IMG/VR virus record: IMGVR_UViG_3300033067_001793
Span: 1 to 25,502 of that record
DNA length: 25,502 bases
Reading direction: 5' to 3' (one strand)
Origin: a virus
Lineage: Duplodnaviria > Caudoviricetes
The notes under the pieces were generated by a model. That model was not told the origin of the DNA and did no database searches. It saw only the letters and a program-made list of their open reading frames with translations. The position numbers and the translations under genes were made by a program. Below, in pieces: positions 2,300 to 21,631 of this stretch. Every line of letters begins with the position of its first letter. Position 1 is the first letter of the stretch.

Positions 2300-2323
2300 A
2301 TTATTATCCTTTGTTATTGTTTT

Positions 2324-2351
2324 ATTATACAAAAATTAATTTATAAGTCAA
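2324..2351 (-). promoter_or_regulatory. sigma70-type promoter
   Basis: TTGACT-16bp-TATAAT on minus strand. Confidence 0.7.
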
Positions 2352-2353
2352 TA

Positions 2354-2375
2354 AAGCCACCTTATTTGGTGGCTT
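2354..2375 (-). terminator. Hairpin/terminator after dnaB
   Basis: 8-bp stem AAGCCACC/GGTGGCTT just downstream of the dnaB stop. Confidence 0.6.
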
Positions 2376-2379
2376 GTGT

Positions 2380-3753
2380 TTAACTCTTAAATGCTAGTTT
2401 TTTCTTAGATTTTTTATCACCTTCAAACTCTGGATAATCTTCTTCTTTTAAATCATCATAAGTTAATTCTTCAAATCTAACTCTTTCACCATTAAACTTT
2501 AAGTGTGCTGAATTACTATTTCCAAATCTGTTTTTGGCTATAATAACTTCAACCATATTGGGTCTTGGACAAGTAGGATCAAACTGTCCTGGTCTATGTA
2601 AGAAAACTATAGATAAAGCATCTTTTTCTAATTGAGAACCACCATGTAAGTTTGCCATTGTTGGTCGTTTTCCTTCATTCTTATGAAACTCTCTATTCAT
2701 TTGTGCTAATGCTATAATAGGAACATTTAAACTCTTAGCTAAACCTAATAATTCAGTAGATATAAACTTAATTTCTTCATCTTCTCTTTTACCTTTTAAA
2801 TGGCTTGCTCTAATTAATTGTATATAGTCAACACAAATAAAGTCTAACTTTTGTTTATTATGTTCAACCTTAGCAATAGAACGAAGTTTAGATATTTCTA
2901 TGTTTGCTGTATCATTATAAACAATATGTTCTGATAAAGAGTTTTTAAATCTAACAATCTCGTCCATTTCTGACTCTGATAAATAACCAGAGTGCATTTT
3001 CCAAGATGGTATATTAGTTCCAGATTGAACCTTTCTAATCATAAGCTGTTCTAAGTTCATTTCTAATGTAAAGAATAAACCTCTTAAACCTCTTGATGAA
3101 TTATAATCTGCTATTTGCTGTAAGAAAGCTGTTTTACCACCACCAGGAGGTGCTGATATAATATTTAATGAACCACCTATTAAATTGATAGTTTTATCTA
3201 CACTTTCAAAACCAAACTTAACAACACCATTACCTTTATTATCAATGTTTGCTTGTAAATGTGTTAAAAACTTATCAAAACCACTTACTTCACTATAACT
3301 CTTATTATCTTCTTTTCTAGAAGCAACACTAGCTATTTCATTTGATATTAATTCAATCTTTTCATCTGCTGTTTTATCAGATAAAGAAATCTCTTCAATG
3401 ATCTTATTCTTTTCAATGATTGCTCTTTGATTTTTTAACTCTATTAACTGTTCAATATAACCAATTAAAGCATCTGAATGTTCCACTTTTTTACTTACTA
3501 ATTCTTTTAATTGTTCTTGTTTAATATTAGAACCCATTAAAGATAATTCATCAATAATAGTAAATTGGTCAATATATGCTTTTCTTGATACTAATTTTTC
3601 TATTGCTGTAAATATATTTCTATTTTCCTCACCATAGAAACAATCAATATCTAAACCATATGTTAATGCTACTTCAATATTATTAGAGTGTCTAATTAAC
3701 ATTGCTATTACTGAAAACTCTGTTTGTCTTGCTACTGGAAACTTATTGCTCAT
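2380..3753 (-). CDS. dnaB: Replicative DnaB-like (SF4) helicase
   Basis: DnaB N-terminal domain; Walker A APPGGGKT, FFTLEM, VDYIQLI, LAQMNR, AKNRFG. Confidence 0.95.
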   Translation of the reverse strand: MSNKFPVARQTEFSVIAMLIRHSNNIEVALTYGLDIDCFYGEENRNIFTAIEKLVSRKAYIDQFTIIDELSLMGSNIKQEQLKELVSKKVEHSDALIGYIEQLIELKNQRAIIEKNKIIEEISLSDKTADEKIELISNEIASVASRKEDNKSYSEVSGFDKFLTHLQANIDNKGNGVVKFGFESVDKTINLIGGSLNIISAPPGGGKTAFLQQIADYNSSRGLRGLFFTLEMNLEQLMIRKVQSGTNIPSWKMHSGYLSESEMDEIVRFKNSLSEHIVYNDTANIEISKLRSIAKVEHNKQKLDFICVDYIQLIRASHLKGKREDEEIKFISTELLGLAKSLNVPIIALAQMNREFHKNEGKRPTMANLHGGSQLEKDALSIVFLHRPGQFDPTCPRPNMVEVIIAKNRFGNSNSAHLKFNGERVRFEELTYDDLKEEDYPEFEGDKKSKKKLAFKS

Positions 3754-3913
3754 TTTTATTCTCCTTTTTTATTCTTTTTTCAAAATCTTCTTCTGTTTCA
3801 ATACTTACTATTTTACCTTTACCTATTGCTTCAATTATACTCTTCAGAAATAAACCTTCAAAAAGTGTTAGTTTATCACAAGAAAATGAAACATCTCTTA
3901 CATATTTACTCAT
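3743..3913 (-). CDS. Hypothetical protein, 56 aa (MSKYVRDVSF...KNEQ); not in ORF track
   Basis: Manual translation; GGAG RBS; overlaps the dnaB start. Confidence 0.65.
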   Translation of the reverse strand: MSKYVRDVSFSCDKLTLFEGLFLKSIIEAIGKGKIVSIETEEDFEKRIKKENKNEQ

Positions 3914-3975
3914 TTTATTCTCCTATTTTTATTATTGAGTGTAGTTTTTTAAAGAAACCACAAAAACTTTTTATT

Positions 3976-4167
3976 TTATAATCTTAACAATTTACTTAAA
4001 TTAATATATGCTTCTGTTTTATCTTTCTTATATAATTCACAAAAATTATCTAATCTTCTTATTGTATCCATTAAAAAAATACTATACATTATATTATCTT
4101 TTTTTAACTCTTCAACATTAACATCTTTAAATTGTTTTTTAATCATATTGTTTATTACAGCATTCAT
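3976..4167 (-). CDS. Hypothetical protein
   Basis: ORF coupled to upstream gene (TAATG overlap), GGAG RBS. Confidence 0.65.
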   Translation of the reverse strand: MNAVINNMIKKQFKDVNVEELKKDNIMYSIFLMDTIRRLDNFCELYKKDKTEAYINLSKLLRL

Positions 4168-4553
4168 TAAATATCTCCTTCAGTAAAATCTTCACTTTCA
4201 GAAATATGCTCACAGATAAAATAAAACAAAGCATCACAGAAATCTTCATAAACAACAACATATTCTGCTGTATTCATTGTTCCTGTTTTATTAAATACTG
4301 CTTTCTTAGCAATTAAGTCAACTCTTGGTGCTAATACTTTAACTTTATTTCCAATTGAAGCATTATATATACTTATTTCAACTAAATCTCCAGCATAGCT
4401 TGCCTCATATGAAAATGGCTTAAATGTTCCATCTAATGTAGCAACACAGAAGTTATGCTTTCTGAATAATGCTTGCTTAGATTGATTATTTACACCTTCA
4501 CTTCTTTGGGAAAGTAGTGCTGGTTTTACTGGTTTTGTTATTACGTTTTTCAT
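4167..4553 (-). CDS. Hypothetical protein
   Basis: ORF with AGGAG RBS and upstream promoter. Confidence 0.75.
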   Translation of the reverse strand: MKNVITKPVKPALLSQRSEGVNNQSKQALFRKHNFCVATLDGTFKPFSYEASYAGDLVEISIYNASIGNKVKVLAPRVDLIAKKAVFNKTGTMNTAEYVVVYEDFCDALFYFICEHISESEDFTEGDI

Positions 4554-4614
4554 TTTTATTCTCCTAAAAAATTATTTTTGTTATAAGATAAGAATTATTT
4601 CCTACCTTGATTTA

Positions 4615-4642
4615 AATATATCAAAAAAATATTAGTTGTCAA
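4615..4642 (-). promoter_or_regulatory. sigma70-type promoter
   Basis: TTGACA-16bp-TATATT. Confidence 0.7.
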
Positions 4643-4665
4643 TACTTTTTTAAAAATATTTTTAT

Positions 4666-5346
4666 TTATACTTTTTCCCTTAATTGAACGAATACTTTAT
4701 CCTTTAAGAAATAATCAAAATCTGGCTGAAACCAACTATTACTTCTATTATTATTCCAACCTTTAACAAGATTAAAATGTTTATCTCCAGTATCTTTAAT
4801 TAAATCAAAATACCCTTCATAGAAATCATAAATATTAATTTCATCAGCTAATTCTTTTGACATTTTCTCATAAAATCTTTTTAATAATTTTTTTCTAGCA
4901 TCTGTCAATATCTTAACTTTTGGAACATTAGTATCTTTAAAACAATCATTAAATATCTGTCTAATTTTATCGTATTCAATTCTTTCTTTTGATTGTTCTT
5001 CAACTGTATCAAACTGTTTATTTTCAACAATTTCTTTAACTATAACCTCTTTTATAGATTGTTTTTTCTTCATTCTAGATTTAGCAACTGCTGCTTTATT
5101 TCCTTTTATCCAACTAAAAAACTTTTTAATTTCTACATAGTCATCAAAATAATCAATACAAAATGATGATTTATTTATAAAGTCTTCTGTTATATCATAT
5201 ACTGATGTTATCTTAAATAAAGGAACTTTATCAGCATCTTCTTTAGCAAATACTTTAACTATATTACATATCTTAGTAAACTCATCTTTTGTAAGTTTTG
5301 AAAACTCTTCAGTTGTAAAAATGTCTGTATTTAATATTATTCTCAT
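4666..5346 (-). CDS. Phage replication initiator / replisome organiser
   Basis: C-terminal IFND..VPKVKILTDARKK..YF..GWN..WFQPDFDYFL resembles the C-terminal domain of phage replication proteins; lies upstream of dnaB. Confidence 0.7.
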   Translation of the reverse strand: MRIILNTDIFTTEEFSKLTKDEFTKICNIVKVFAKEDADKVPLFKITSVYDITEDFINKSSFCIDYFDDYVEIKKFFSWIKGNKAAVAKSRMKKKQSIKEVIVKEIVENKQFDTVEEQSKERIEYDKIRQIFNDCFKDTNVPKVKILTDARKKLLKRFYEKMSKELADEINIYDFYEGYFDLIKDTGDKHFNLVKGWNNNRSNSWFQPDFDYFLKDKVFVQLREKV

Positions 5347-6726: not shown

Positions 6727-6990
6727 ATGAGAGAAGGTTATTTGAATGATACTGAACCAGCAATTCTTGAGAAAGAATATTCAGTTTACTTAGAAAAAAA
6801 TTATAGTTATAATTTCAATTTATTTCAAAAATCAAAAGTTAAATACCCAAGTGAACTAACAGAAAAAGAAGCCAGAAATGAAATAACTGCTTATTATGAT
6901 TTATATAAAAAATGTATTCATATGCCATTATGTGTAAATCAAAGATTGTTAGAGATTTCTAAATTATTACAAGGTAAAACATTAAAATGA
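6727..6990 (+). CDS. Hypothetical protein
   Basis: AAGGAG RBS. Confidence 0.75.
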   Translation: MREGYLNDTEPAILEKEYSVYLEKNYSYNFNLFQKSKVKYPSELTEKEARNEITAYYDLYKKCIHMPLCVNQRLLEISKLLQGKTLK

Positions 6991-7367
6991 GAATAAAAGA
7001 TTATAATTACGATAATATAAAAAACCTAAAAAACCCAATGGGAAATTATGATGTTGTTGTAGATTTTATAAAAGAAACTTTTGATGTTTATAAAGAATAT
7101 GAAGGCATGTTATCATATTATCAAACAAAGGAAAAAAGTGTTTTTTGTTTAATAGATAGCATAAAAAATGTTATAAGTTTTTGTAATAATAATGATAAAA
7201 TGTTAGATGATGATTTCTATGTTTTACCAAAAAACAATCAACCATATGTTAGAAACCAAGAAGATTTTAATGAGTTAAAACACCTATTTTTAAAGTATAA
7301 ACTAGAAGAAAAACTCCAAAAAGAATTAGTGGTTAATACACCAAAACGAAAAGTTAATAAAATCTAA
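6987..7367 (+). CDS. Hypothetical protein with shared C-terminal KI tail
   Basis: ATGA coupling; ends KYKLEEKLQKELVVNTPKRKVNKI. Confidence 0.8.
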   Translation: MRIKDYNYDNIKNLKNPMGNYDVVVDFIKETFDVYKEYEGMLSYYQTKEKSVFCLIDSIKNVISFCNNNDKMLDDDFYVLPKNNQPYVRNQEDFNELKHLFLKYKLEEKLQKELVVNTPKRKVNKI

Positions 7368-7372
7368 AAAAT

Positions 7373-7398
7373 AAAAGCACTTGACAAAAGTGCTTTTT
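7373..7398. terminator. Bidirectional intrinsic terminator
   Basis: AAAAGCACTT/AAGTGCTTTT stem between convergent genes. Confidence 0.75.
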
Positions 7399-7455
7399 CT
7401 TACTATGTTACTCCTAGTGGTTTAATTTTAAGAGTAACGGGGGTAATATTCCAAG

Positions 7456-7677
7456 TTATTTTTTCTTGCTTAAAATCATATTTTTTAAAGACTTAATATG
7501 CATAGGCATTTCAGTATCTAATTCTACAAATCTTTTTTGATTTTTTATAAAGAAAACTAAGTCTTCTTCTGTATTCTCATTTTTAATTCCTTCATATATA
7601 ATGAATAACATTTTTACATAAAACTCTCTGTTTTCTGCATCTATTTTTTCTTTGAAATTGAAGTTTAAATTAATCAT
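7456..7677 (-). CDS. Hypothetical protein
   Basis: AAGGAG RBS. Confidence 0.7.
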   Translation of the reverse strand: MINLNFNFKEKIDAENREFYVKMLFIIYEGIKNENTEEDLVFFIKNQKRFVELDTEMPMHIKSLKNMILSKKK

Positions 7678-7703
7678 TTGGTTTCTCCTTTTTTATTGAT
7701 TTT

Positions 7704-8006
7704 TTACTCGTAATCTGTATCGCCATCTATCCAATGTAAGTTAGCTTTTTTGCTTGCTAACTGTGATATGTCTATATCAACTTTCTTCTTAAGTATCTCA
7801 ATTTGTTCTTCATAATGATTTACTTTTTTTACTTGTTGTTCTACAATATCACCAGGATAATTCTTTTCTATTTTATTTTTTAAAGACATATCATGCAATT
7901 CTAATGTTTGCTCTAAAAGTTTTATACTATCAATGTTTTTACAACATCTTTTCTCTGTTCTTTTTATTTCTTCAACAAGATAATCTTTAATTTTTTGATT
8001 AGACAT
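7704..8006 (-). CDS. Hypothetical coiled-coil protein
   Basis: AAGGAG RBS; heptad-like sequence. Confidence 0.7.
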   Translation of the reverse strand: MSNQKIKDYLVEEIKRTEKRCCKNIDSIKLLEQTLELHDMSLKNKIEKNYPGDIVEQQVKKVNHYEEQIEILKKKVDIDISQLASKKANLHWIDGDTDYE

Positions 8007-8086
8007 ATAATCTTAATCTCCTTAATAATATAATAACATATATGAAAATATTGTCAACTTTTTTTAAATATTTTTTAATAAAACTA

Positions 8087-8114
8087 TTGACAAATATTTT
8101 ATTTATTATATAAT
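8087..8114 (+). promoter_or_regulatory. sigma70-type promoter driving candidate sRNA
   Basis: TTGACA-16bp-TATATT with no RBS-led ORF before the next terminator. Confidence 0.65.
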
Positions 8115-8120
8115 TAATTT

Positions 8121-8221
8121 AACAATAACAATTACCAACGATTTTTATTCTCTAGTTGAAAACAGGTTTTCCTCCCTTTCCTGTTTATGAACCTCCAGAT
8201 TTTTGGAGGTTCTTTTTTTTT
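8121..8221 (+). ncRNA. Candidate ~100-nt small RNA
   Basis: Bounded by a promoter and a strong terminator; internal hairpin AAACAGG/CCTGTTT with a CU-rich loop. Confidence 0.55.
8189..8221 (+). terminator. Intrinsic terminator
   Basis: GAACCTCCA/TGGAGGTTC stem followed by T9. Confidence 0.88.
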
Positions 8222-8233
8222 ACCTATTTACTA

Positions 8234-8261
8234 TTGACTTTGCGTTTTATTTTGATATATT
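8234..8261 (+). promoter_or_regulatory. sigma70-type promoter
   Basis: TTGACT-16bp-TATATT with TG extension. Confidence 0.75.
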
Positions 8262-8293
8262 AATATTAAGATTATTAAAAAAGTGAGGAATTA

Positions 8294-8887
8294 ATGGCTA
8301 CAAATAAAAACAATAATAATAAACCAGTTCAAAGTTTATGGAGTCTATTCTCTGGAACAAGCATACCTGCATCATTACTTGTTGATGCCTCAGTAAAAGT
8401 AAAAAGAGATAATGAAATTAAAGATTTTCATACATATGAAGAATGGTTAGATTTTAACAAAAAAAGTTTAATTAAAAGATATGTTGAAGATTTTAACAGT
8501 AATATTAAAAACAAAAACAAGAAAAAATCAATTGAAGAAAAAATGAAGGATTGGATACATAATCACGAAATATTTTCAGTATTATCTACACACCAAATAG
8601 TTTCTCTTTATGTTGATTTCTATAATATAAAAGATGCTTACTTCTATAAGAAAAAAATACTTTTTATTGTAAATATTTTTAAAAGAATTGAAAAGGTTGT
8701 TGATAAAGATTTTAATATTTATATTATAAAAGCATTAAAAGATGATGCTAATAAAATGAAGGAAAAAACAAAAGATTACGAGCTAAAAGCAGTAAAGAAA
8801 ATTGAAGTATTAACTTTAAAATATGAACTTGAAAAAGGATTGTTGTTGAAAGAAAAACAAATAGAAAAAAAATGGAGTAAAATATGA
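8294..8887 (+). CDS. Hypothetical protein with shared C-terminal KI tail
   Basis: GAGG RBS; ends LKYELEKGLLLKEKQIEKKWSKI. Confidence 0.8.
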   Translation: MATNKNNNNKPVQSLWSLFSGTSIPASLLVDASVKVKRDNEIKDFHTYEEWLDFNKKSLIKRYVEDFNSNIKNKNKKKSIEEKMKDWIHNHEIFSVLSTHQIVSLYVDFYNIKDAYFYKKKILFIVNIFKRIEKVVDKDFNIYIIKALKDDANKMKEKTKDYELKAVKKIEVLTLKYELEKGLLLKEKQIEKKWSKI

Positions 8888-9321
8888 AAAAGAAAGAAAT
8901 AAATAAATGTATAACATACTATTATAAACAATATGGAAAAGATAGAACTTTTAAAATTGGAGATTGGTTTTGTACTTTTTCTGAACTAACTAACAGTGAT
9001 ATTTCTTTTTTACCAGTAGACTTAAATCATAAAGTTTCAACAATTAAAAAGCTTAATCTATTAACAACTAATAGTGAAGTTTTATCAACCAGATTTCATA
9101 ATATTAACTTAGGTTCTATATTTTTTACTCATTATACTCCATTAATTGTTAATAGCAGAAGTGTTTCAATAGAAGGATTAGATGGTAGAACTTTTAGAGG
9201 AATTAGAAAAGGATTATATCATGACTTGTTATTGAACTATCAAAGATTAATGTTTCAAAAAGATTTAGATAAAGTGTTAGATAAGAAAGAAGTTATAGAA
9301 AAAAAGAGAGGTAAAATATGA
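8884..9321 (+). CDS. Hypothetical protein with shared C-terminal KI tail
   Basis: ATGA coupling; ends QKDLDKVLDKKEVIEKKRGKI. Confidence 0.8.
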   Translation: MKKKEINKCITYYYKQYGKDRTFKIGDWFCTFSELTNSDISFLPVDLNHKVSTIKKLNLLTTNSEVLSTRFHNINLGSIFFTHYTPLIVNSRSVSIEGLDGRTFRGIRKGLYHDLLLNYQRLMFQKDLDKVLDKKEVIEKKRGKI

Positions 9322-9716
9322 TTACAAACACATTTTCAGAAAGAGATACTAAGTTAAGATTTCTATTTAGAGAGTTAGATAGAAGAATAAAAGATAAGTA
9401 TGATTTCGTATTAAAAATAGATATGGAAATAATGGAAGAGTTATTTAATAATCAAACAGTTCTACAGTTTAAGTTGGTGTTAAAACATAAACATGAAAGA
9501 TTATATCTTAACCAAACAATAAGTAATATGGCTCATTTAATGCGTTCTTTTGATAATAGTTTTGAATGGATGTTTCAGGATATAGAAAATAAACTTTTTG
9601 AGTATTTAGATAAAGAAAAGAAGCCATATGAAATACAAAATCAATATGAAATATTACAAGAATTATTGCCAGAAAAAAAAGAAGTAAAAGAAAAACCAAA
9701 GAAACTTAAAATATAA
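9318..9716 (+). CDS. Hypothetical protein with shared C-terminal KI tail
   Basis: ATGA coupling; ends YEILQELLPEKKEVKEKPKKLKI. Confidence 0.8.
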   Translation: MITNTFSERDTKLRFLFRELDRRIKDKYDFVLKIDMEIMEELFNNQTVLQFKLVLKHKHERLYLNQTISNMAHLMRSFDNSFEWMFQDIENKLFEYLDKEKKPYEIQNQYEILQELLPEKKEVKEKPKKLKI

Positions 9717-9718
9717 TA

Positions 9719-9746
9719 TTGACATTGTATTTTGTTTTGATATATT
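9719..9746 (+). promoter_or_regulatory. sigma70-type promoter
   Basis: TTGACA-16bp-TATATT with TG extension. Confidence 0.75.
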
Positions 9747-9782
9747 AAATATATAACATCAATTTTAAAGAGGAGGTATGTT

Positions 9783-10199
9783 ATGAATAAAGTAGATTAT
9801 CTACAAGAAGTAGAATTAAAATTAGAAGAATTAAAGCAAGTTGATTTTCTTGATTTGATATATAGTGAAGTGTATAGTTTATATACAAAAAATATAAAAC
9901 CACCAACAGAAGAAACAAGAGAAATATCATTTAATGATTTAAGTAATTTTGTAAAAAATGTAAGTTATGAATATAAAGATTTACATAGATATGCTGCTAA
10001 ACTTATGGAAAGAGTGGAAGCACAACCAAGTAAAGAATTGAGACTTGAAAAATCTATATTAAAGATGACTGAATATTTTTATAGACAAGATGATATTAAC
10101 CTAGCAGAGATAACAGCGATGCAGAAATATCAACAAATGTTTGCTGAAAACAATCCATTACAAAGTATTTTTGATATTAAAAACAAGAATAACCAATAA
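9783..10199 (+). CDS. Hypothetical protein
   Basis: GAGGAGG RBS. Confidence 0.8.
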   Translation: MNKVDYLQEVELKLEELKQVDFLDLIYSEVYSLYTKNIKPPTEETREISFNDLSNFVKNVSYEYKDLHRYAAKLMERVEAQPSKELRLEKSILKMTEYFYRQDDINLAEITAMQKYQQMFAENNPLQSIFDIKNKNNQ

Positions 10200-10208
10200 G
10201 GAGAATAT

Positions 10209-10301
10209 ATGAAATCAATATTAGAGTTTTTATTCTATCTATTTGAACCATATAATCCAGATTTATTTGAAGATGATGTTTTAATAGATGAAGATAACTA
10301 A
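10209..10301 (+). CDS. 30-aa acidic peptide (MKSILEFLFYLFEPYNPDLFEDDVLIDEDN); not in ORF track
   Basis: AAGGAG RBS; followed by a terminator. Confidence 0.55.
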   Translation: MKSILEFLFYLFEPYNPDLFEDDVLIDEDN

Positions 10302-10308
10302 AAAAATT

Positions 10309-10346
10309 AAGGGGAAGGTTGACTTCCTCTTTTTTATTGCTATATT
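10309..10346 (+). promoter_or_regulatory. Terminator hairpin overlapping a promoter
   Basis: AAGGGGAAG/CTTCCTCTT stem plus T-tract; TTGACT (10319)-16bp-TATATT. Confidence 0.7.
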
Positions 10347-10367
10347 AAATAGTAATGGAGGTATAAC

Positions 10368-10580
10368 ATGACTGAATATATGAGAAAAAAACTAGAAAAA
10401 CTTAAATGGAGATACCAGCTACACGATGATATGGGTTGTCTTCGTGAGTTTAGAGATAAAGATAGTGCTATTCAGTGGCAAAACTCTAGGAAAGACTTAA
10501 AGTTAGTTATAGTAAAGCCAAAGAAAATAAATCCATTTGAAATTACAGATAATTTTAATCCATTTGATATTCCATTTTAA
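10368..10580 (+). CDS. Hypothetical protein
   Basis: GGAGG RBS. Confidence 0.75.
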   Translation: MTEYMRKKLEKLKWRYQLHDDMGCLREFRDKDSAIQWQNSRKDLKLVIVKPKKINPFEITDNFNPFDIPF

Positions 10581-10721
10581 TTATTTTTTATATTCAATTT
10601 TCTAATTACCATTTATCTAAGATAATTGGTATTTTTTTTGATTTTTATTTTTATTTTGTTTTAATTAATTAGGGTTAATAAAAAAACCTTAGTCATTTTA
10701 ATTAAAGAAAGGGAAAGTAAA

Positions 10722-11123
10722 ATGAAAAATGAATTAATAAAATTAGAACAGTTATTTTACAAAATGGAGGACTATATAAATGAATCTGGATTTAATGCTG
10801 ATGGATATATATATGATTATAGATTATATAGGTATTCAAATAAATGTTATATAAGAAACATAAAGTATCCAAATATAAAAATGGAAATTACTGAAAAAAG
10901 ATATAAGGAAATTAATAATTTAGAATTAATTATATATAAATTATTAAAAAATATTAATGATTATTATGATAGTTGTTTAGATGATGATTTTAATATATCT
11001 TTACAGATTAATGAATTAAAAAAAGAAAATAAAAAATACATAATTGAAGAAGAAAAAGAAAGATTAGATTTTATATTAGAAAATAAAGATGGTGATTTAA
11101 AAGAAAAATTAATTAAAGTATAA
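10722..11123 (+). CDS. Hypothetical protein with shared C-terminal tail (KV); paralog of 12465-13025
   Basis: Ends EKERLDFILENKDGDLKEKLIKV; shares EIT..Y..I.NL....L...I.DYYD..F.I..QIN.L with 12465-13025. Confidence 0.75.
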   Translation: MKNELIKLEQLFYKMEDYINESGFNADGYIYDYRLYRYSNKCYIRNIKYPNIKMEITEKRYKEINNLELIIYKLLKNINDYYDSCLDDDFNISLQINELKKENKKYIIEEEKERLDFILENKDGDLKEKLIKV

Positions 11124-11140
11124 ATATTTTTAAAAAAGTA

Positions 11141-11168
11141 TTGACATTAAATAATTTTTTACTATATT
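11141..11168 (+). promoter_or_regulatory. sigma70-type promoter
   Basis: TTGACA-16bp-TATATT. Confidence 0.75.
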
Positions 11169-11237
11169 AAAAATAAGGGAGCAAAAAACTCCCTTACAAA
11201 AACAAAAAACATTTTAATTAAAGAAAGGGAAAATAAA

Positions 11238-11627
11238 ATGGACTTATATGAATTAGTAAATGAAACAAGAGAATTATCAGTAGACAAATTAGTTGAAGAT
11301 ATAAAAGGTATGGGTTTTCAATCAAAAGAAGAATTGGAGCAATACCTGGAAGAAAATGATAGTTTTAATGATTATGTTTGGGAAAGTGCTAGTATTGTTA
11401 TGGACAGGAGAAGATACAGCGAATTATTTAATTGTTATGTAGAAAACTCTGACGATATTGATGATAGTTATACAACTTATATAAAACATTATGGTGTTGA
11501 AGTAATAAGAAACTCAATAGAAGATAGTATACAAGCAGGTATTTTATATTATCTATACAGTCAAGTATATAACAATAAAGAAGATGTATTTTTTGAGTTA
11601 GTAAATGAATATTTTAATTATGAATAA
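11238..11627 (+). CDS. Acidic Ocr-like (DNA mimic / anti-restriction) candidate
   Basis: About 30 D/E vs 10 K/R; segments resemble T7 gp0.3 by eye. Confidence 0.5.
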   Translation: MDLYELVNETRELSVDKLVEDIKGMGFQSKEELEQYLEENDSFNDYVWESASIVMDRRRYSELFNCYVENSDDIDDSYTTYIKHYGVEVIRNSIEDSIQAGILYYLYSQVYNNKEDVFFELVNEYFNYE

Positions 11628-11638
11628 AGGAGATAAAA

Positions 11639-11965
11639 ATGAAATATGATTATAAAGATTTTATAGATTACAGATATAATTTAGATGACTTTATGAGTTT
11701 TCTAGTTGACAATATCATATATAATAAAACAGATGAAATAAATGATTTTGATTTATTCTTAAAAGATATTAAATATTCTTATTTACTGAATAAGGAATAT
11801 ATAGAAAATGAGAGTTTTGATTTTAATAGTTTTTATTATGAATTATCAAAGAAAGATTATGTTTATATAGATTTTTTGTTGTATAGAAACAACAACTTAA
11901 ATTGTGGTATAAATAATGATTTAGTTGAAGATTTAAGGGATTTTTTCAATATATATGTTAAATAA
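11639..11965 (+). CDS. Hypothetical acidic, aromatic-rich protein
   Basis: AAGGAG RBS; D/Y/F-rich. Confidence 0.75.
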   Translation: MKYDYKDFIDYRYNLDDFMSFLVDNIIYNKTDEINDFDLFLKDIKYSYLLNKEYIENESFDFNSFYYELSKKDYVYIDFLLYRNNNLNCGINNDLVEDLRDFFNIYVK

Positions 11966-11982
11966 TCAATAAAAGGGTTAAA

Positions 11983-12219
11983 ATGGCAAGAAAAACAAAT
12001 AAAATAGCCGTTAGAAGTACATACTTGTATAATAACGGCACTATTAAAGAAGATAATAGATTATTATCTGAAGAGTCTTATAAAGATTGGTTAAAATACG
12101 ATGTTTATTGGCATATTGATGATGAAAATAGTAAATATCTTAAAAATAGTGGATTAGTTTTTGTTAATTTTACAGAGTTTAATAAAAATGATATTAAAAT
12201 ATATGAAAAAACTTTTTAA
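11983..12219 (+). CDS. Hypothetical protein
   Basis: ORF in operon, AGGG RBS. Confidence 0.7.
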   Translation: MARKTNKIAVRSTYLYNNGTIKEDNRLLSEESYKDWLKYDVYWHIDDENSKYLKNSGLVFVNFTEFNKNDIKIYEKTF

Positions 12220-12225
12220 TAACTA

Positions 12226-12253
12226 TTGACTTTAATTTTTAATTTACTATATT
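12226..12253 (+). promoter_or_regulatory. sigma70-type promoter
   Basis: TTGACT-16bp-TATATT. Confidence 0.75.
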
Positions 12254-12286
12254 AAATATATAACAACAATAAAAAAGGAGAATGTT

Positions 12287-12463
12287 ATGAATAATAAAAA
12301 ATATATAGAAGAGTATATAAAATTAAGAGAATTGTTAGCACTCAAAAATAAATATAGTGTAAATGGTTCTAGTGATATATATAGTGAAAAGTTCAATGAA
12401 GTAATGGACTTAGATATAAAAAAACAAAAACAAGTTTTAGATAGTTTAATCAAGGGAGAATAA
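12287..12463 (+). CDS. Hypothetical protein, 58 aa (MNNKKYIEEY...LIKGE); not in ORF track
   Basis: AAGGAG RBS, own promoter. Confidence 0.7.
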   Translation: MNNKKYIEEYIKLRELLALKNKYSVNGSSDIYSEKFNEVMDLDIKKQKQVLDSLIKGE

Positions 12464-12464
12464 T

Positions 12465-13025
12465 ATGAATAAAGATAATTTGTCAATGGTTGAAAAGGTT
12501 GGTGTATTAGTTAGTAATGTAGGAAAGTTTTTTGACTTAATGCCTAATGGTGGTGGAAGTCTTAATGATTTTACAATAGTTGGTGGAAGTAAATTATATT
12601 TAGAAGATAAAGCAGTTTTCTATACTCATGATGAACTAAAACACTTATTGAATGGAAATCAATATATAACAGAAAGCGAACTAGAAAATATTTATAGAAT
12701 AAAGCCTTGTTATTTTATAAGAGATGATGTTTTATTTGAAAATGAAGAACCAGAACATACAAGAGAGATAACAAAGGAGCAATATGATGATATTGTTAAT
12801 TTAATACATAAAACACTTGATTTAGTTGCTGAAATAAGTGATTATTATGATGATATTGAAGAATTATATTTGCATTTTGGTTTTGATATAGAAGAACAAA
12901 TAAATCAATTATATGAAGAGAGCGACAAGTATAGAAGAGAATATAATAACTATTTATTAAAAGAGAAATTAGATAGAGAATTAGTAGAAAAAATAAACAA
13001 TCAAAAAAAGTTAAATAAAATATAA
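12465..13025 (+). CDS. Hypothetical protein with shared C-terminal KI tail
   Basis: GGGAG RBS; ends LLKEKLDRELVEKINNQKKLNKI. Confidence 0.8.
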   Translation: MNKDNLSMVEKVGVLVSNVGKFFDLMPNGGGSLNDFTIVGGSKLYLEDKAVFYTHDELKHLLNGNQYITESELENIYRIKPCYFIRDDVLFENEEPEHTREITKEQYDDIVNLIHKTLDLVAEISDYYDDIEELYLHFGFDIEEQINQLYEESDKYRREYNNYLLKEKLDRELVEKINNQKKLNKI

Positions 13026-13032
13026 AATACTA

Positions 13033-13060
13033 TTGACTTTTGATTTTAATATGATAAATT
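13033..13060 (+). promoter_or_regulatory. sigma70-type promoter
   Basis: TTGACT-16bp-TAAATT with TG extension. Confidence 0.6.
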
Positions 13061-13094
13061 ATATATATGAAGTTTACAAAAAAGGAGAATAAAA

Positions 13095-13457
13095 ATGAGT
13101 AAATTACAAGTTAAAGAACAAACAACAGAACACGGACTAGCAACAAAAAGATTTATCAATAAGAATACACTTATAGAAATTGTTAAGGTATTCAAGAAGA
13201 ATGGAAAGAAAAGTTTTTTCAATACATTGTCAGTAGATGGTTATAAGTTAGTTCAAAACATACCAGGAAACTATATGGTTAAAGATGAAAACAAAGATGT
13301 GGTTCTATCTTTTGATAGTAGTGGTATAGTAATGACAACAGATAAAAACAGAGAGCAAATGTTTCTAGACTTTTTAGAGGTATATAAGATTAAACAAGAA
13401 TTAGAAAATACACTAGACAATAAAGAACAAGTGGCAATTAGAAAATTGAAAATATAA
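13095..13457 (+). CDS. Hypothetical protein with shared C-terminal KI tail
   Basis: AAGGAG RBS; ends IKQELENTLDNKEQVAIRKLKI. Confidence 0.8.
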   Translation: MSKLQVKEQTTEHGLATKRFINKNTLIEIVKVFKKNGKKSFFNTLSVDGYKLVQNIPGNYMVKDENKDVVLSFDSSGIVMTTDKNREQMFLDFLEVYKIKQELENTLDNKEQVAIRKLKI

Positions 13458-13537
13458 AACAAAATGGTTGGAGATTATCCATAAAACAAAATCTTCTTCT
13501 TCCTTATAACCAGAGATGAAACTGGAAAAACATAGAT

Positions 13538-13567
13538 AAGAGACTGAAATATGTCTCTTTTTCTTTT
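13538..13567 (+). terminator. Intrinsic terminator
   Basis: AAGAGAC/GTCTCTT stem followed by a T-rich tract. Confidence 0.65.
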
Positions 13568-14040
13568 GGAATGATAACAAATTGATAGAATTGTAGGTGT
13601 TCCATATTATATATTATGGTGTAAAAGTCAATAGATATACATAACAATGATATAAAATTATATTATATGAAATAGTAGTAAAGTAAATAGATATAAAGTG
13701 TGGTTTATTTACAACAATAAATAGCGTAATATTACAATAAATGTTGTATAAATGATACATATTGCCTATTTTTTAAGCAGTGTTGTATTACATCAGACGA
13801 CTAAAAAGCCTATTTTCATTGACTTTACCTAATTGTAAATTAGAAAAATCAAATACTTATCCCACTTTTCCCCCAATTATACAGAACATTCTTCACAATT
13901 TTATCATTGAACCAATTACAATTCTATAACACAGCAATCAATCCATCATTAAATCAATGAAACACTCCAATAAATATTAAAGAAATCATTACAGCCATAT
14001 AACAATGGAATAAATATAGTATATTAGAGCCTGGTTGTAC

Positions 14041-14246
14041 ATTCATTTTTCTAATTGCCATTAACTTATCGTTGATAATTTTTTATCTTATTGCTGATAA
14101 TTTTTTAATAATTAATATATATAGTGTAAATTAGAAAAATGAATAAATATCATATAAATAATAATCAATAAATCAAGTACTTGATTTTTAATTTTAATTT
14201 AATAAGATAGTATTATATCAACAACAACAATAAGGAGAATGATATG
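14041..14246 (+). repeat. Cassette repeat copy A (inverted-repeat module, promoter, RBS)
   Basis: Direct repeat with 15207-15442 and 15779-16035; 16-bp perfect IR 14041-14056/14129-14144; promoter TTGATT (14181)-16bp-TAAGAT. Confidence 0.9.
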
Positions 14247-15215
14247 ACAACAATAATAAATAATATAGAATATGACTTTGATAAAGTATATATAGATAAA
14301 TATGGCTATAAAGATAATCAATCCGATACACCATTAAAAAGTAAGGCATCAGTTATTAAAAGATTAACAGGACAAACAGAACAAACTAATGAATTATATT
14401 ATGGTTGGATTGATAACTTTAGAGACGATAAAGAAATAGCATTATTAGCTATTAAAAATGAGACTTATGGATTATCATTAAAATATTTTAGTCCTAGATT
14501 ACAGAATGATAAAGAAGTAGTTATGGCTCAACTAAATAAAAATGATAGCGAATATGTTCTTATGTATGTTAGTGAAGAATTAAGAGATAATGAAGAAATA
14601 GCAGACTTAGCAATGTCTCAAAACCCAAAACAATACAAGTATTTAAGCGCTAGATTAAAGTGTCAATTAAAGTATTTCAATACTCTTAGAGAAGTTGACG
14701 AAATGTTAGCATTTGATTACGCACCTGGTATTATCATAACTAATAAAATGATTGAAGAATATCTAGAAAAATACGGGAACATATCAATAAACTTATTAGA
14801 TAGTACAATTTTCAACAACTTAAATAATGGTGATAGATTAAAGTATGCTAAACAGTTTTTAATTAATAATATATCTAGAATTGGTGGATATAATTTCAAC
14901 GAACATAAACTATTGAAGTTTATAGACCACAACCTAAGACATGATAAAGAAGTAGTTAAGGCTATTGTATTAGATAACTATAGAGAACTAGAAGATATGA
15001 AGGACGAAGAGATAACACCAGAACTATTACTAGAGATATATGATACAGCAGAAGACGCAGAACAATATTTATATCTATATGTTCCAAAGCAATATAGAAA
15101 AGGTATAGAAGAAAATGGTAGAGTATACTTAGAAAACCTATCATTAAAAAACAAGTTAGATAATATGTTAAAATTGAATGAAGTTGAAACAATAACTAAG
15201 AGATTAAAGATATAA
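14244..15215 (+). CDS. DUF4116-repeat protein with shared C-terminal KI tail
   Basis: Repeats RDDKEIALLAIK..LKYFSPRLQNDKEVV..LMYVSEELRDNEEI..LRHDKEVVKAIV; ends LKNKLDNMLKLNEVETITKRLKI. Confidence 0.8.
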   Translation: MTTIINNIEYDFDKVYIDKYGYKDNQSDTPLKSKASVIKRLTGQTEQTNELYYGWIDNFRDDKEIALLAIKNETYGLSLKYFSPRLQNDKEVVMAQLNKNDSEYVLMYVSEELRDNEEIADLAMSQNPKQYKYLSARLKCQLKYFNTLREVDEMLAFDYAPGIIITNKMIEEYLEKYGNISINLLDSTIFNNLNNGDRLKYAKQFLINNISRIGGYNFNEHKLLKFIDHNLRHDKEVVKAIVLDNYRELEDMKDEEITPELLLEIYDTAEDAEQYLYLYVPKQYRKGIEENGRVYLENLSLKNKLDNMLKLNEVETITKRLKI

Positions 15216-15442
15216 AATAATAGGGGTGTAATTCCCCTATTTTCTAATTGACAATTTAACTTTTTGTTTATAATTTTTTATCTTATTGCTGATAATTTTT
15301 ATTATAATAATTTATTAATAAAGTCAATTAGAAAATTGAAAAATATCATATAAATAATAATCAATAAAACAAGTACTTGATATTTAATTTTTATATGCTA
15401 ATCTATTAGTATAACAACAATAATAATAAGGGGAATGATATG
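15207..15442 (+). repeat. Cassette repeat copy B
   Basis: Terminator, 13-bp IR (15240-15252/15323-15335), promoter TTGATA (15377)-16bp-TAATCT, RBS. Confidence 0.9.
15219..15243 (+). terminator. Intrinsic terminator (identical copy at 15791-15815)
   Basis: AATAGGGG/CCCCTATT stem followed by Ts. Confidence 0.75.
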
Positions 15443-15787
15443 AAAACAATAAAACAATATAAAGATATGATTAAAACATTTACAGAAATAGAAAATAATT
15501 ATGAATATCAAACAGAAATAAATGGTACTATTTTTAGTTTTAAGTTTATGTTTAGTAATGGAGATAATCCAATTATAAGAATAAGACACGAAATAGAAGA
15601 AGATAATAATAGATATTGGATTTTTGATGATGATATTACAGATACATTATTAAATAATAAAAATTATATTGATAACGAAACATATATTATTGATATATTA
15701 AATAAATTAGAAATAATATATAATAAGACACAATTAGATAATTTATTAATTAATAACATAACAGAAAGAAAGGTAAACAAGATATAA
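15440..15787 (+). CDS. Hypothetical protein with shared C-terminal KI tail
   Basis: AAGGGG RBS; ends NKTQLDNLLINNITERKVNKI. Confidence 0.8.
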   Translation: MKTIKQYKDMIKTFTEIENNYEYQTEINGTIFSFKFMFSNGDNPIIRIRHEIEEDNNRYWIFDDDITDTLLNNKNYIDNETYIIDILNKLEIIYNKTQLDNLLINNITERKVNKI

Positions 15788-16035
15788 AATAATAGGGGTG
15801 TAATTCCCCTATTTTCTAATTGACAATTTATCTTATTGCTGATAATTTTTTATCTTATTGCTGATAATTTTTATTATAATTAATATATATAGTGTAAATT
15901 AGAAAAATGAATAAACATCATATAAATAATAATCAATAAAACAAGTACTTGATATTTAATTTTTATATGCTAAGATATTTATATGAGAAACAAAAAACTC
16001 ATAATCATATTAACAATAATAAGGGGAATGATATG
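15779..16035 (+). repeat. Cassette repeat copy C
   Basis: Terminator identical to copy B, tandem TTATCTTATTGCTGATAA x2, promoter TTGATA (15949)-16bp-TAAGAT, RBS. Confidence 0.9.
15791..15815 (+). terminator. Intrinsic terminator
   Basis: Same AATAGGGG/CCCCTATT hairpin. Confidence 0.75.
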
Positions 16036-16461
16036 GAAAAAGAAACAATAAAAAACATAAATAAAAGCAATAAAGACTTTTTTAAAATGATTGAAAAGGA
16101 AATGATACTAAACTTTTCACATGATATATTATCTTTAATATCAATTGAATTGAAAACAATTAAAAAAGTAAAATCAATAGGGGGATTAAAAATTAATTTT
16201 ATTGAAAATAAACTAGAAATATTATATAAAAATAGTGAAACATATAACAGTTTAATTAGCTATATAGTATTAAATAATAATTATCATTCTTATAATTTAA
16301 GAATACTTAAAGATGAGTTATTAGAAAATAAAAATAATAGCATATCTAAAAATGATTTATTAGAAACAATTAAAAAAATTGAAATAGAAAACTTAAAAAA
16401 TGAATTAGATAAAGAATTGTTAATAAATAACACAATAGACAGAAAGGTAAACAAGATATGA
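16033..16461 (+). CDS. Hypothetical protein with shared C-terminal KI tail
   Basis: Start moved to ATG 16033 (same AAGGGGAATGATATG leader as copy B); ends LKNELDKELLINNTIDRKVNKI. Confidence 0.8.
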   Translation: MEKETIKNINKSNKDFFKMIEKEMILNFSHDILSLISIELKTIKKVKSIGGLKINFIENKLEILYKNSETYNSLISYIVLNNNYHSYNLRILKDELLENKNNSISKNDLLETIKKIEIENLKNELDKELLINNTIDRKVNKI

Positions 16462-18807: not shown

Positions 18808-19248
18808 ATGTTTGATAAACAACAATTAGAAATTATAAAAGAAGTAGGAAGAGAAGGTTTATCCTTAAGAGTTGCTGCATCTAGAATTGGAATGGTTCAC
18901 GGCAAGTTTATGTCTGAATATGAAGAAAATGAAGAAGCACAATTAGCATATGAATCTGGTCAAGCAGAATTAGAAGTTGAAGTAGTTACAGTTGCTAAAG
19001 CTGGATTTATTGATGACCAAAAAAAGTTTGATTTCCTTGCAAATACAGTATTGAATATGGACGGTAAAAATACTGCTAAAAATATTCAAACAAAACAAAA
19101 AACTGCTGCTGTTCCAAAAGAATTATTTAATCCAACAAGTTTGCTTGAGTTAGATGATGAAGAATTAAAAAGAAAAGCAGAACAAAAATTGATTGAAGAA
19201 TCAAAAAAAGTAAAACCAATAACCGATAAGAATGGAGAAGAGCAATGA
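18808..19248 (+). CDS. Putative terminase small subunit
   Basis: N-terminal HTH (GLSLRVAASRIGM), AYESGQAELE helix, C-terminal LLELDDEEL; upstream of TerL. Confidence 0.5.
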   Translation: MFDKQQLEIIKEVGREGLSLRVAASRIGMVHGKFMSEYEENEEAQLAYESGQAELEVEVVTVAKAGFIDDQKKFDFLANTVLNMDGKNTAKNIQTKQKTAAVPKELFNPTSLLELDDEELKRKAEQKLIEESKKVKPITDKNGEEQ

Positions 19249-19421
19249 GCAAATTAAAAAAATTATTTATATTATATATTTTAAGCATAATACTAAGTGT
19301 AGGTTCACTATTTTATGTTTTAAATGAAGTAGATAAAGAAGTACAACAATTAAAAAAAGATTTAATGGTTACAGTGTTTGTAGTTAATCAATTATTAGCA
19401 GTAGGACATACACACCAATGA
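19245..19421 (+). CDS. 58-aa membrane protein MSKLKKLFILYILSIIL...; not in ORF track
   Basis: ATGA-coupled at both ends; N-terminal TM segment. Confidence 0.65.
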   Translation: MSKLKKLFILYILSIILSVGSLFYVLNEVDKEVQQLKKDLMVTVFVVNQLLAVGHTHQ

Positions 19422-19678
19422 TTAATAAAGTTACACCAGTATTGCCTATACAAGCAATTAGAAAATACAACCAACATTTACCAAAGGAAAACACCATGCA
19501 AGAAATGGATTATAAACTAACTATTAAAGGTTTAGAAGAACAAGTTGAAATGTTAACATATGAGAGAGATTTCTATAGACAAAAGTTTGAGTCAACACAG
19601 ATTAAAAACTTTTTACAGCATTTTACACCACAAGAACAAATGGAATTATTTGAAATGATAGATAAAGGAGCTGAATAA
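19418..19678 (+). CDS. Hypothetical coiled-coil protein
   Basis: Coupled ORF. Confidence 0.7.
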   Translation: MINKVTPVLPIQAIRKYNQHLPKENTMQEMDYKLTIKGLEEQVEMLTYERDFYRQKFESTQIKNFLQHFTPQEQMELFEMIDKGAE

Positions 19679-19971
19679 TGGCTGAAAAGAAAACAACAAA
19701 AAAAGCAGAACCAAAAACTGCTGCTTGGCAAAGAAAAGAAGGCAAAGACCCTAAAGGTGGTTTAAATGCTAAAGGTAGAGCATCATACAATAAAGAAACT
19801 GGAGGTAATCTAAAGCCACCAGCACCTAATCCAAAAACAAAAAAAGATCAAGCTAGAAAAGATTCTTTTTGTGCCAGGATGGAAGGCATGAAAAAGAAAC
19901 TAACAAGTGAAAAAACTGCTAAAGATCCAAATAGCAGAATAAATAAAAGCTTAAAAGCTTGGAAATGTTAA
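19678..19971 (+). CDS. Conserved basic phage protein (DUF6321-like)
   Basis: AWQRKEGKDPKGGLNAKGRASYN..GGNLKPP..RKDSFCARM..SRINKSLKAWKC; family name recalled, not searched. Confidence 0.75.
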   Translation: MAEKKTTKKAEPKTAAWQRKEGKDPKGGLNAKGRASYNKETGGNLKPPAPNPKTKKDQARKDSFCARMEGMKKKLTSEKTAKDPNSRINKSLKAWKC

Positions 19972-19996
19972 TTTAATTTTACAAAGGAAATATATT

Positions 19997-20173
19997 ATGT
20001 TTGGAAGTTTATTAAAAGCAGCAGTTGGAGTAGTAGTAGAGACTCCATTAGCAGTAGTAGCAGATGTTGTTACATTATGTGGTTCTTTAACAGATAAAGA
20101 TAAACCATATACGGCAGAAGCAGTAGAAAAAATAGTAGAAAATGTTCAAGATGCAACAAACCCTAAGGAGTAA
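19997..20173 (+). CDS. 58-aa phage protein MFGSLLKAAVGVVVETPLAVVADVVTLCGSLTD; not in ORF track
   Basis: AAGGA RBS; P.AVVADVVTL.G.LTD..PYT motif recalled from small phage proteins. Confidence 0.7.
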   Translation: MFGSLLKAAVGVVVETPLAVVADVVTLCGSLTDKDKPYTAEAVEKIVENVQDATNPKE

Positions 20174-20178
20174 TAATA

Positions 20179-20274
20179 ATGAATGCACATCAAAGAAGAA
20201 TTAAAAGAAGAGAACACTTAAGAGTTGAAAGAAAAAATAAACTCAAAGAAGAAAAATCTAAACAACAGAAATGA
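20179..20274 (+). CDS. 31-aa basic peptide MNAHQRRIKRREHLR...
   Basis: AAGGAG RBS; ATGA-coupled to the next gene. Confidence 0.5.
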   Translation: MNAHQRRIKRREHLRVERKNKLKEEKSKQQK

Positions 20275-20615
20275 AGTTTAATAAAATAAATATACCTATT
20301 TACAGAAAGACTTTTTATATTATAACAGATAAAGAGTCTTATTATCTTTTGTATTTAAAATATAAAGGAGAAGATATAGATTTATCAACTTGTAATGGAG
20401 TATGTTCAGAAATAGGAACTGGATATTATTTGCTTGGAGTTTTTGATGGAAAGATTTCAACATTAATACATGAATTAACTCACTTATCAATGTATATATT
20501 AGATAATGGAGATAAGTATGATTTTAGAGAAAATGATGAACAACTTGCTTATTTAATGGAATATTTAACAGAGAAATCATTAACATATTTAAGTGTTAAG
20601 AATAAAAGTTATTAA
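20271..20615 (+). CDS. HEXXH zincin-like metallopeptidase-family protein
   Basis: TLIHELTHL followed by DEQLAYL. Confidence 0.7.
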   Translation: MKFNKINIPIYRKTFYIITDKESYYLLYLKYKGEDIDLSTCNGVCSEIGTGYYLLGVFDGKISTLIHELTHLSMYILDNGDKYDFRENDEQLAYLMEYLTEKSLTYLSVKNKSY

Positions 20616-20630
20616 GATTAAGCCAACTTC

Positions 20631-20651
20631 GAGCCTGCTGACGCAGGCTTT
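20631..20651. terminator. Hairpin between convergent genes
   Basis: AGCCTGC/GCAGGCT stem. Confidence 0.65.
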
Positions 20652-20655
20652 AGTT

Positions 20656-20868
20656 TTATTCTTCTTTATCTCTTATCTCTTCAATTACTTTATTGTTTAG
20701 ATACAATACAACTTTTGATAGCAGTATAATCAATATTAAAAATACAAACATTTTAGTTTTTTCATACCAATTAACTAATGTATCTGCTACACTAATTTTA
20801 AATAACAATTTAAACAATATCTCAATAGATAGGGTTATTGTCAGTGCCATCAACAAGTCTGTCAGCAT
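20656..20868 (-). CDS. Small membrane protein
   Basis: Hydrophobic segments; overlaps the upstream gene end. Confidence 0.5.
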   Translation of the reverse strand: MLTDLLMALTITLSIEILFKLLFKISVADTLVNWYEKTKMFVFLILIILLSKVVLYLNNKVIEEIRDKEE

Positions 20869-21593: not shown

Positions 21594-21631
21594 TTGACAT
21601 TTTCCTAATATTTTCTTATTATAATATATAC

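Follow-up and report, generated by a model that had tools for sequence, protein, structure and literature searches.

A 25,502-base fragment of a tailed-phage genome with a GC content of about 25% (IMG/VR record IMGVR_UViG_3300033067_001793, positions 1 to 25,502; this entire stretch is referred to below as the window) encodes ten proteins that end in the same C-terminal tail of about 22 residues. This tail constitutes a portable tag at the protein C-terminus, conserved at the protein level and attached to bodies that are unrelated to one another, both in the phage and in its relatives, as is supported by shuffled controls, related phage loci, codon comparisons and a profile built from a second element. 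That element, record G001 (loci L335-L344; 180,807 bases, 27.5% GC), bears the tail on 132 of its 237 open reading frames (ORFs), or on 137 by a looser rule, and encodes IcmW-like and DotL-like proteins. We give an even chance to the interpretation that the tail is a type IVB secretion signal of an AT-rich replicon of approximately 2.2 Mb, which the phage has borrowed.

A common C-terminal tail on unrelated phage proteins

The tail is composed of an amphipathic L-x3-L(-x3-L) helix in which the third leucine is frequent, a polar linker of 7-10 residues, and a terminal [KR]xxK[IV]-COOH. It is helical in a structural model; positions -24 to -11 contain about three acidic residues, and its end is basic; the last seven residues have a net charge of +2 to +4 in 10 of 10 window tails, and the final residue is I or V. 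A first-pass annotation of the window had quoted ten C-termini and proposed a consensus for them. All ten are present on the plus strand at the stop codons listed below, and the consensus holds, refined here to a [KR]xxK[IV] end preceded by a helix that is often L-x3-L-x3-L.

The gene set used for counting comprises 47 genes hand-picked from 77 ORFs, with antisense shadows and the portal gene, which is open at its 3′ end, excluded. The pattern L[DEQN]xxL-x(9-14)-K[IVL]-COOH occurs in 10 of these 47 genes, exactly the ten named earlier. Shuffling whole proteins 1000 times yields a mean of 0.023 matches (maximum 2), shuffling the last 30 residues yields a mean of 0.046 (maximum 1), and one of 3690 internal protein positions matches; composition-matched shuffles thus predict 0.02-0.05 tails where ten are observed. 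As this pattern was fitted to the ten proteins, the independent test is a profile made from the 132 G001 tails alone. This profile places nine of the ten window proteins at ranks 1-9, four of them with scores of at least 10 bits, a level attained by none of 4496 control C-termini, and misses the protein at 10722-11123. The reciprocal profile, built from the window tails, reaches at least 10 bits for 43 of 222 G001 protein ends versus 1 of 4496 controls. The ten tailed genes are as follows.

6987..7367, + strand: tailed orphan, 126 amino acids (aa); 17.3 bits with the G001-only profile; no Pfam, PHROG, NCBIfam or PADLOC match
8294..8887, + strand: tailed orphan, 197 aa; promoter-like site upstream at 8234; 8.2 bits with the G001-only profile
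8884..9321, + strand: tailed orphan, 145 aa; tailed relative in phage locus L348 (37% over 41 aa, E = 1.3e-5); 9.6 bits
9318..9716, + strand: tailed orphan, 132 aa; 7.2 bits with the G001-only profile
10722..11123, + strand: tailed orphan, 133 aa; paralog of 12465; weakest tail, -1.3 bits with the G001-only profile
12465..13025, + strand: tailed orphan, 186 aa; paralog of 10722; 16.6 bits with the G001-only profile
13095..13457, + strand: tailed orphan, 120 aa; promoter-like site upstream at 13033; 21.0 bits with the G001-only profile
14244..15215, + strand: tailed DUF4116-repeat protein, 323 aa (PF13475, E = 2.5e-21)
15440..15787, + strand: tailed orphan, 115 aa; tail DNA recently in common with 15949, downstream terminator in common with 14244
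15949..16461, + strand: tailed orphan, at most 170 aa (the start is possibly later); 19.7 bits with the G001-only profile

Only the protein at 14244-15215 can be given a family name, and tailed DUF4116 proteins are likewise present in G001; the other nine have no meaningful match in Pfam, PHROG, NCBIfam or PADLOC. The sole relatedness detected among the ten bodies is that between 10722 and 12465 (38% over 58 aa, E = 1e-5), as the first-pass annotation had held, and its statement that core genes lack the tail is likewise borne out: the O-like replication protein at 4666-5346 has a C-terminal K-V but no leucine helix.

Across all 45 pairs of tails, residues shared within the last 12 positions are specified by identical codons in 105 of 170 cases (0.62), compared with 0.60 expected from codon usage, and therefore the tail is maintained as protein and not as DNA. 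For example, the protein ending at 7367 has seven residues but no codons in common with that ending at 15787, and eight residues but one codon in common with that ending at 16461; all six leucine codons are in use among the tails. Two pairs do share recent DNA. The tails ending at 15787 and 16461 agree at 8 of 9 codons, and the 40 bases 3′ of the stop codons at 15215 and 15787 are identical (40/40). From these pairs we infer that new bodies may acquire the tag by recombination at the 3′ end, whereby exchange between gene cassettes would hand the tag to a new body.

The tailed phage genes reside in small cassettes, with 16 terminators found where shuffles give 1.3. Promoter-like sites show no overall excess (130, versus 120 ± 9.6 in shuffles); among the strong ones between 6300 and 19000, 17 of 27 have a 16-base spacer instead of one of 17 bases, a possible clue to the host RNA polymerase, and one promoter-like site falls within a terminator-like hairpin at 7373-7397. 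An intergenic module of approximately 200 bases occurs in three copies (60-100% alike) 5′ of the last three tailed genes, at 14047-14270, 15240-15465 and 15812-16040; it contains an internal 22-base repeat, and its copies are likely recombination points for the gain, loss and duplication of cassettes. A contig from sequencing run X2 joins positions 6900-10580 to 11139-12280 with about 500 other letters between them, so that the 10722 cassette has been swapped for different DNA in a close strain. On a second contig from this run, the DUF4116 cassette (14244) is present at double depth and loops back, as expected of a tandem copy, and this cassette has likely been duplicated in a close strain.

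Nine metagenome loci were recovered by a terminase-pattern search, four of which are true relatives of the phage. Tailed ORFs number 6, 3, 1 and 0 in the fetched parts of these four, which reach unequally into the accessory region. The only body matching a window protein is that in L348, which resembles 8884 as listed above, and the tail is kept in both. The tag is therefore conserved while the bodies turn over. Single-protein scans of IMG/VR and scans of GTDB revealed no phage relative, and cultured phages gave distant matches only; a terminase alignment returned 80 distant loci at 30-38%, with four chance-level matches among them. A DNA scan of IMG/VR with the tail pattern yielded mostly chance matches (under a strict rule, 6 of 241 loci with one matching ORF and none with more), and locus L103 from the tail-pattern scan, with two tailed genes, provided the route to record G001. 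A tail-only profile, which is too short for a library of this size, found five matches among 1.84 billion proteins, three of them with the lengths of window proteins; the remaining two were a read-through form of 15949 and an artefact of a TPR-like repeat. The ESM Atlas gave no usable lead. Related but distinct ends, with a proline-rich linker and a terminal K-F or R-L, were seen in P0007 and P0149, and an isolated K-I tail is present on another viral contig (L246:7299-7649). The differing ends of these three hint at a wider tail family.

The tailed genes occupy the early region of the phage, distant from the packaging genes, and the centre of the window is an accessory region made up of small orphans. 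It is flanked by two untailed modules.

82..5346, - strand: untailed replication module with metallophosphoesterase, RusA, DnaB and O-like initiator, from family matches
18808..25502, + strand: untailed packaging region with a likely small terminase, the large terminase (21687-23558) and a portal-like protein (24201 to the end), from PHROG; the small terminase and portal are called by position and weak PHROG hits

The large terminase belongs to a close group of 13 sequences (40-92% identity), several of which lie on contigs of 54-58 kb, and therefore the whole genome of this lambdoid-like phage is probably about 54 kb. At least half of the sampled window words are present in four runs from two studies; where labelled, the runs holding them are aquaculture, aquatic or freshwater metagenomes, and none of the listed holders is an RNA dataset. 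The best matches of the phage DnaB, at about 30% identity, do not point to a host. A 70-aa orphan at 10368-10580 (+ strand) has an acidic C-terminal stretch with Ile-Pro-Phe and is possibly a mimic of the SSB tail, as an acidic C-terminal peptide with an Ile-Pro-Phe end is typical of bacterial SSB.

The same tail on a giant replicon

Record G001 was found via the tail, and thus one of its matches is not independent; its 132 tailed ORFs are. Their products have a median length of 242 aa. Among 53 that were picked for family spread, there are 12 DUF285, 7 DUF4116, 6 ankyrin, 2 DUF1281, 1 WGR, 1 DUF7768 and 2 weak DUF6745 proteins, along with 22 that have no family. Leucine occupies positions -21, -17 and -13 in 52-68% of the G001 tails, and lysine at -2 is present in 100%, as set by the selection rule. 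By a hydropathy window, a membrane- or signal-like segment is present in 0 of 132 tailed and 28 of 105 untailed G001 proteins (p = 1e-11); none of the ten tailed window proteins has such a segment, with the contrast to untailed proteins significant only in G001. A structural model of a tailed DUF285 protein (mean predicted local distance difference test score, pLDDT, of 92.5) ends in a long helix, and its last 20 residues are of low confidence (pLDDT 60 and 42).

The tailed family is widespread, with the tail present on 77 of the best 120 DUF285 homologs. Fourteen of the 120 are recorded from a contig of 2,230,803 bases, with six identical letter for letter to G001 proteins, and further homologs lie on contigs of 2.217-2.224 Mb. 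Because of these six identities, G001 is likely a piece cut out of a 2.2-Mb replicon. There appears to be a class of such AT-rich replicons (2.217-2.231 Mb), bearing dozens of DUF285, ankyrin and DUF4116 paralogs.

The untailed proteins of G001, 83 of 100 of which were scanned, include NAD salvage enzymes, ArgRS, a PheS-related ligase, a photolyase, LemA/TPM, a PcfJ-like protein and a helicase. No ribosomal, RNA polymerase or virion family was found in Pfam among these 83; G001 is a provirus cut-out, and such calls trim host genes, which biases the record against core cell genes. Plasmids of 0.7-1.3 Mb from Variovorax, Ideonella and Pseudomonas carry counterparts of the AAA+ and pncB genes of G001, and the closest copies of this pncB are those of Ralstonia, Acinetobacter and Variovorax (55-58%). 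No tailed loci were found in GTDB scans, and other elements of this type were absent from the scans of GTDB, IMG/VR, PLSDB and INPHARED. We consider the G001 replicon quite probably a giant conjugative element, and with distinctly lower probability the chromosome of an undescribed AT-rich bacterium. Its AEP-like primase (L335:6876-7445, - strand) has a basic K-I tail with no clear leucine helix; primases are a classic cargo of conjugation. Tetranucleotide composition is not discriminating, with a correlation of 0.49 between the window and G001 and of up to 0.62 for AT-rich controls.

Candidate readers and competing explanations

The first-pass annotation had stated that a receptor for the tail cannot be identified in the window, and there is no candidate there. 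In G001, an IcmW-like protein (PF23130, E = 3.9e-15, above the Pfam cut-off) is encoded by a gene that directly adjoins six tailed genes. A second protein of 313 aa (L336:18037-18975, + strand) matches residues 214-362 of Legionella DotL (E = 4.7e-15) as well as TrbC (E = 2.7e-14). The location of this match within DotL, together with its predicted helicity, suggests that it corresponds to the all-alpha domain, which a single-sequence model of too low quality (pLDDT 39.8) could not confirm. IcmS was not seen in G001. In Legionella, DotL and IcmSW recruit effectors, according to the available portion of PMC7280309. Similarly, as far as the sections available of PMC8740702 describe, the all-alpha domain of VirD4 binds C-terminal secretion domains, and known type IV signals have a free basic C-terminus with an essential terminal hydrophobic residue, including the VirF signal, whose basic C-terminus depends on its last residues (Vergunst et al., summarised in PMC8740702).

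The tail fits these signals in having a basic free C-terminus and a terminal hydrophobic residue. This fit, the sharing of the tail with G001, the reciprocal profiles, the presence of the IcmW-like and DotL-like genes, the lack of membrane segments in the tailed G001 proteins and the parallel in pBASL58 described below lead us to the interpretation of the tail as an export signal. In such a mechanism, the 2.2-Mb replicon would carry a complete Dot/Icm-like machine, the phage and the replicon would meet in one cell, and the coupling complex of the machine would read the tail. The leucine helix would dock on the DotL all-alpha domain or on an IcmW-type adaptor, and the free basic end would be threaded first. 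The approximately ten phage accessory proteins would then be delivered into adjacent cells or be in competition with the cargo of the element itself.

A cultured parallel is provided by pBASL58 (NZ_CP032678.1, L376-L416), a 904-kb Pseudomonas megaplasmid of 55% GC with an annotated Dot/Icm cluster. An 851-aa ORF of pBASL58 matches the DotL-like piece of G001 at 40% identity, and a stand-alone DotL-like copy of 328 aa lies near 340,400-340,700; such middle domains lacking the ATPase parts, found in both G001 and pBASL58, might be soluble adaptors or decoys. Gly-Leu terminates 136 of the 749 ORFs in the 841 kb examined, in most cases within L-x-x-[DE]-L-G-L, and this tail is likely an export or docking tag of pBASL58's own. 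None of the 38 tailed pBASL58 proteins scanned has a Pfam family, and every pBASL58 end scores below 10 bits with the G001 profile; the tail is thus a different one. The main text of the pBASL58 paper does not mention "c-termin", "icm", "type iv" or "effector" (PMC6482414). A Variovorax megaplasmid yielded no DotH, IcmW or DotL-like match, and no four-residue end is enriched among 400 of its ORFs (441 of 816 kb).

Several observations weigh against the export interpretation. No secretion genes are present in the phage fragment or in the loci of its relatives, and therefore any reader of the tail must sit on another replicon. On G001, no core genes of the DotA, DotG or DotH type were found among the proteins scanned from its 181 kb, which amount to about 8% of the 2.23-Mb replicon. 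The IcmW-like match scores 41.6 bits, below the NCBIfam cut-off of 100, and the DotL-like protein is without ATPase parts. A Lon-like AAA+ gene (E = 1e-22 to Lon) directly downstream of the IcmW-like gene (both at L335:282-2222, - strand) offers an alternative reader. The absence of membrane segments from the 132 tailed proteins would be expected of any tag used in the cytoplasm, the basic end of the tail contrasts with the Glu-rich signal of Legionella, and for a tag common to two unrelated mobile elements a host protein is the simplest reader. The pBASL58 tail, itself a candidate tag, differs in sequence from that of the window and G001, and the contrast between a plasmid with Dot/Icm and one without it sets one case against one.

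Some of these points would be accounted for if the tail were a degron or an adaptor handle for an AAA+ unfoldase, which would be ClpX of the host or else the Lon-like ATPase encoded next to IcmW, with the variable bodies (ankyrin, DUF285, DUF4116) bringing targets, or themselves, to the protease. Poxvirus ankyrin/PRANC proteins have a similar design of a binder plus a common tail. A host reader would explain use of the tail by both phage and element, the Lon-like gene adjoins IcmW, and the charged last seven residues and the low model confidence of the final 20 would both suit a degron; no protease domain was detected in the Lon-like protein, which might form an adaptor-unfoldase pair with the IcmW-like protein. 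To our knowledge, C-motif 2 of MuA, a ClpX degron, does not serve as a tag on a hundred paralogs. Its end, RRKKAI, is close to [KR]xxK[IV], but the MuA tag as used, in the part of PMC12723719 available, has neither a spaced leucine helix, the leucine positions being conserved here, nor the near-invariant lysine at -2. The parallel tail of pBASL58 is moreover acidic, unlike C-motif 2, and secretion-coupling genes sit amid the tailed genes. We judge this explanation to be rather unlikely, if the strongest of the competitors. Less probable again is docking of the tailed proteins on a host hub (RNA polymerase, the ribosome, the replisome, a membrane site or each other) with neither export nor degradation. 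Cassettes with promoters and terminators are typical of early host-takeover regions, all of the tailed proteins are soluble and the amphipathic helix might self-associate, but no candidate hub was found, and both the IcmW-like and DotL-like genes amid tailed genes and the pBASL58 parallel would be left unexplained.

Two further explanations carry very little weight. Loading into the capsid for co-injection would suit a tailed phage whose small accessory proteins end in a basic tail, but more than 130 G001 genes have the tail, the Pfam scan of 83 of the 100 untailed proteins turned up no virion family, and the tailed phage genes are early and remote from packaging, which together make it highly improbable. 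From the list of machines drawn up in the first-pass annotation, secretion has thus gained ground, with 132 of 237 G001 ORFs tailed in the company of IcmW-like and DotL-like genes, and capsid loading has become unlikely. We find it scarcely credible that the tail is a by-product of DNA, such as a repeat rich in AT or the A-rich start signal of the gene that follows. In favour of this, of the 132 tailed genes in G001, 92 lie no more than 15 bases from a neighbour, which is on the same strand for 85, the terminal isoleucine is encoded by ATA in 54 of 80 cases versus a background of 27%, as would result from ATGA overlaps, and two window pairs have recent DNA in common. The preference for ATA favours some DNA-level pressure in G001, but the rate of identical codons, at the level expected, largely refutes this explanation, 25 of the tailed genes in G001 are convergent with their neighbour, and no start lies close behind 8 of the 10 window tails.

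Type IV signals and degrons at the C-terminus are both established types of tag, and as far as we have searched this particular tail is unreported. A full-text literature search, with most subscription journals and supplements outside its scope, returned no account of the tail or the replicon, nor of any phage with a shared tag of this kind. Should the tail be an export signal, it would amount to a compact, almost uniform type IVB code from which hundreds of substrates could be predicted on a previously undescribed 2.2-Mb replicon, with the phage exploiting the secretion machine of another element. We advance more tentatively, as a view that is rather doubtful at present, that the 54-kb phage parasitises the type IVB export of an undescribed class of giant elements (about 2.2 Mb) by copying their tag onto fast-changing proteins of its own, which would enter adjacent cells or jam the machine, and that such elements, including pBASL58, each use a private C-terminal code on at least 100 orphans. 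Were the tail instead a protease handle, the tailed proteins would form a natural library of targeted degraders. The candidate readers, namely the DotL-like domain, the IcmW-like protein and the Lon-like ATPase, are encoded by small genes, and with pBASL58 as a cultured parallel the question is testable.

Comparison with known systems

The VirB/D4 signal of Agrobacterium, as represented by VirF, is a basic, hydrophilic C-terminus on unrelated carriers in which the last residues matter, according to the sections available of PMC8740702, and the same applies to the tail described here. The present tail differs from that of VirF in being lysine-based, in its upstream leucine helix and fixed K-[ILV] end, and in its association with type IVB parts and with a phage that shows no machine. 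Likeness to the Dot/Icm system of Legionella (PMC7280309, in part) resides in the IcmW-like and DotL-like proteins of G001 and in the many repeat proteins with a common C-terminal tag. Unlike in Legionella, a near-uniform motif is present on more than 130 genes, the DotL-like piece stands alone, and the tail is basic and not the acidic, Glu-rich C-terminus that defines the E-block.

The XVIPCD of Xanthomonas likewise places one C-terminal module on many different bodies and combines a folded binding part with a free end. It is described in the available part of PMC8740702 as an alpha/beta domain of about 120 residues that includes a beta-sheet and has a Gln-rich tail, serving a type IVA system, whereas the tail here is helical, spans about 22 residues and includes neither such a domain nor a Gln-rich end. 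Kib of Pseudomonas putida IsoF exemplifies type IVB delivery into other bacteria; in contrast to the situation here, it is a single effector-immunity pair, located on a genomic island and featuring the motif FxxxLxxxK, with no mass-tagged cargo and no phage in the portion of PMC9519443 available. C-motif 2 of MuA, recognised by ClpX, resembles the tail in having a basic run followed by a terminal Ile, and departs from it in the leucine helix and the lysine at -2 (PMC12723719, in part). The closest counterparts of G001 are pBASL58 and pMPPla107, which share with it a giant replicon, housekeeping-like genes, pncB, a stand-alone DotL-like domain and a common tail on many orphans. The Dot/Icm cluster is a feature of pBASL58, with G001 showing IcmW-like and DotL-like parts, and pBASL58 is further distinguished from G001 by its L-x-x-[DE]-L-G-L tail and its GC content of 55%.

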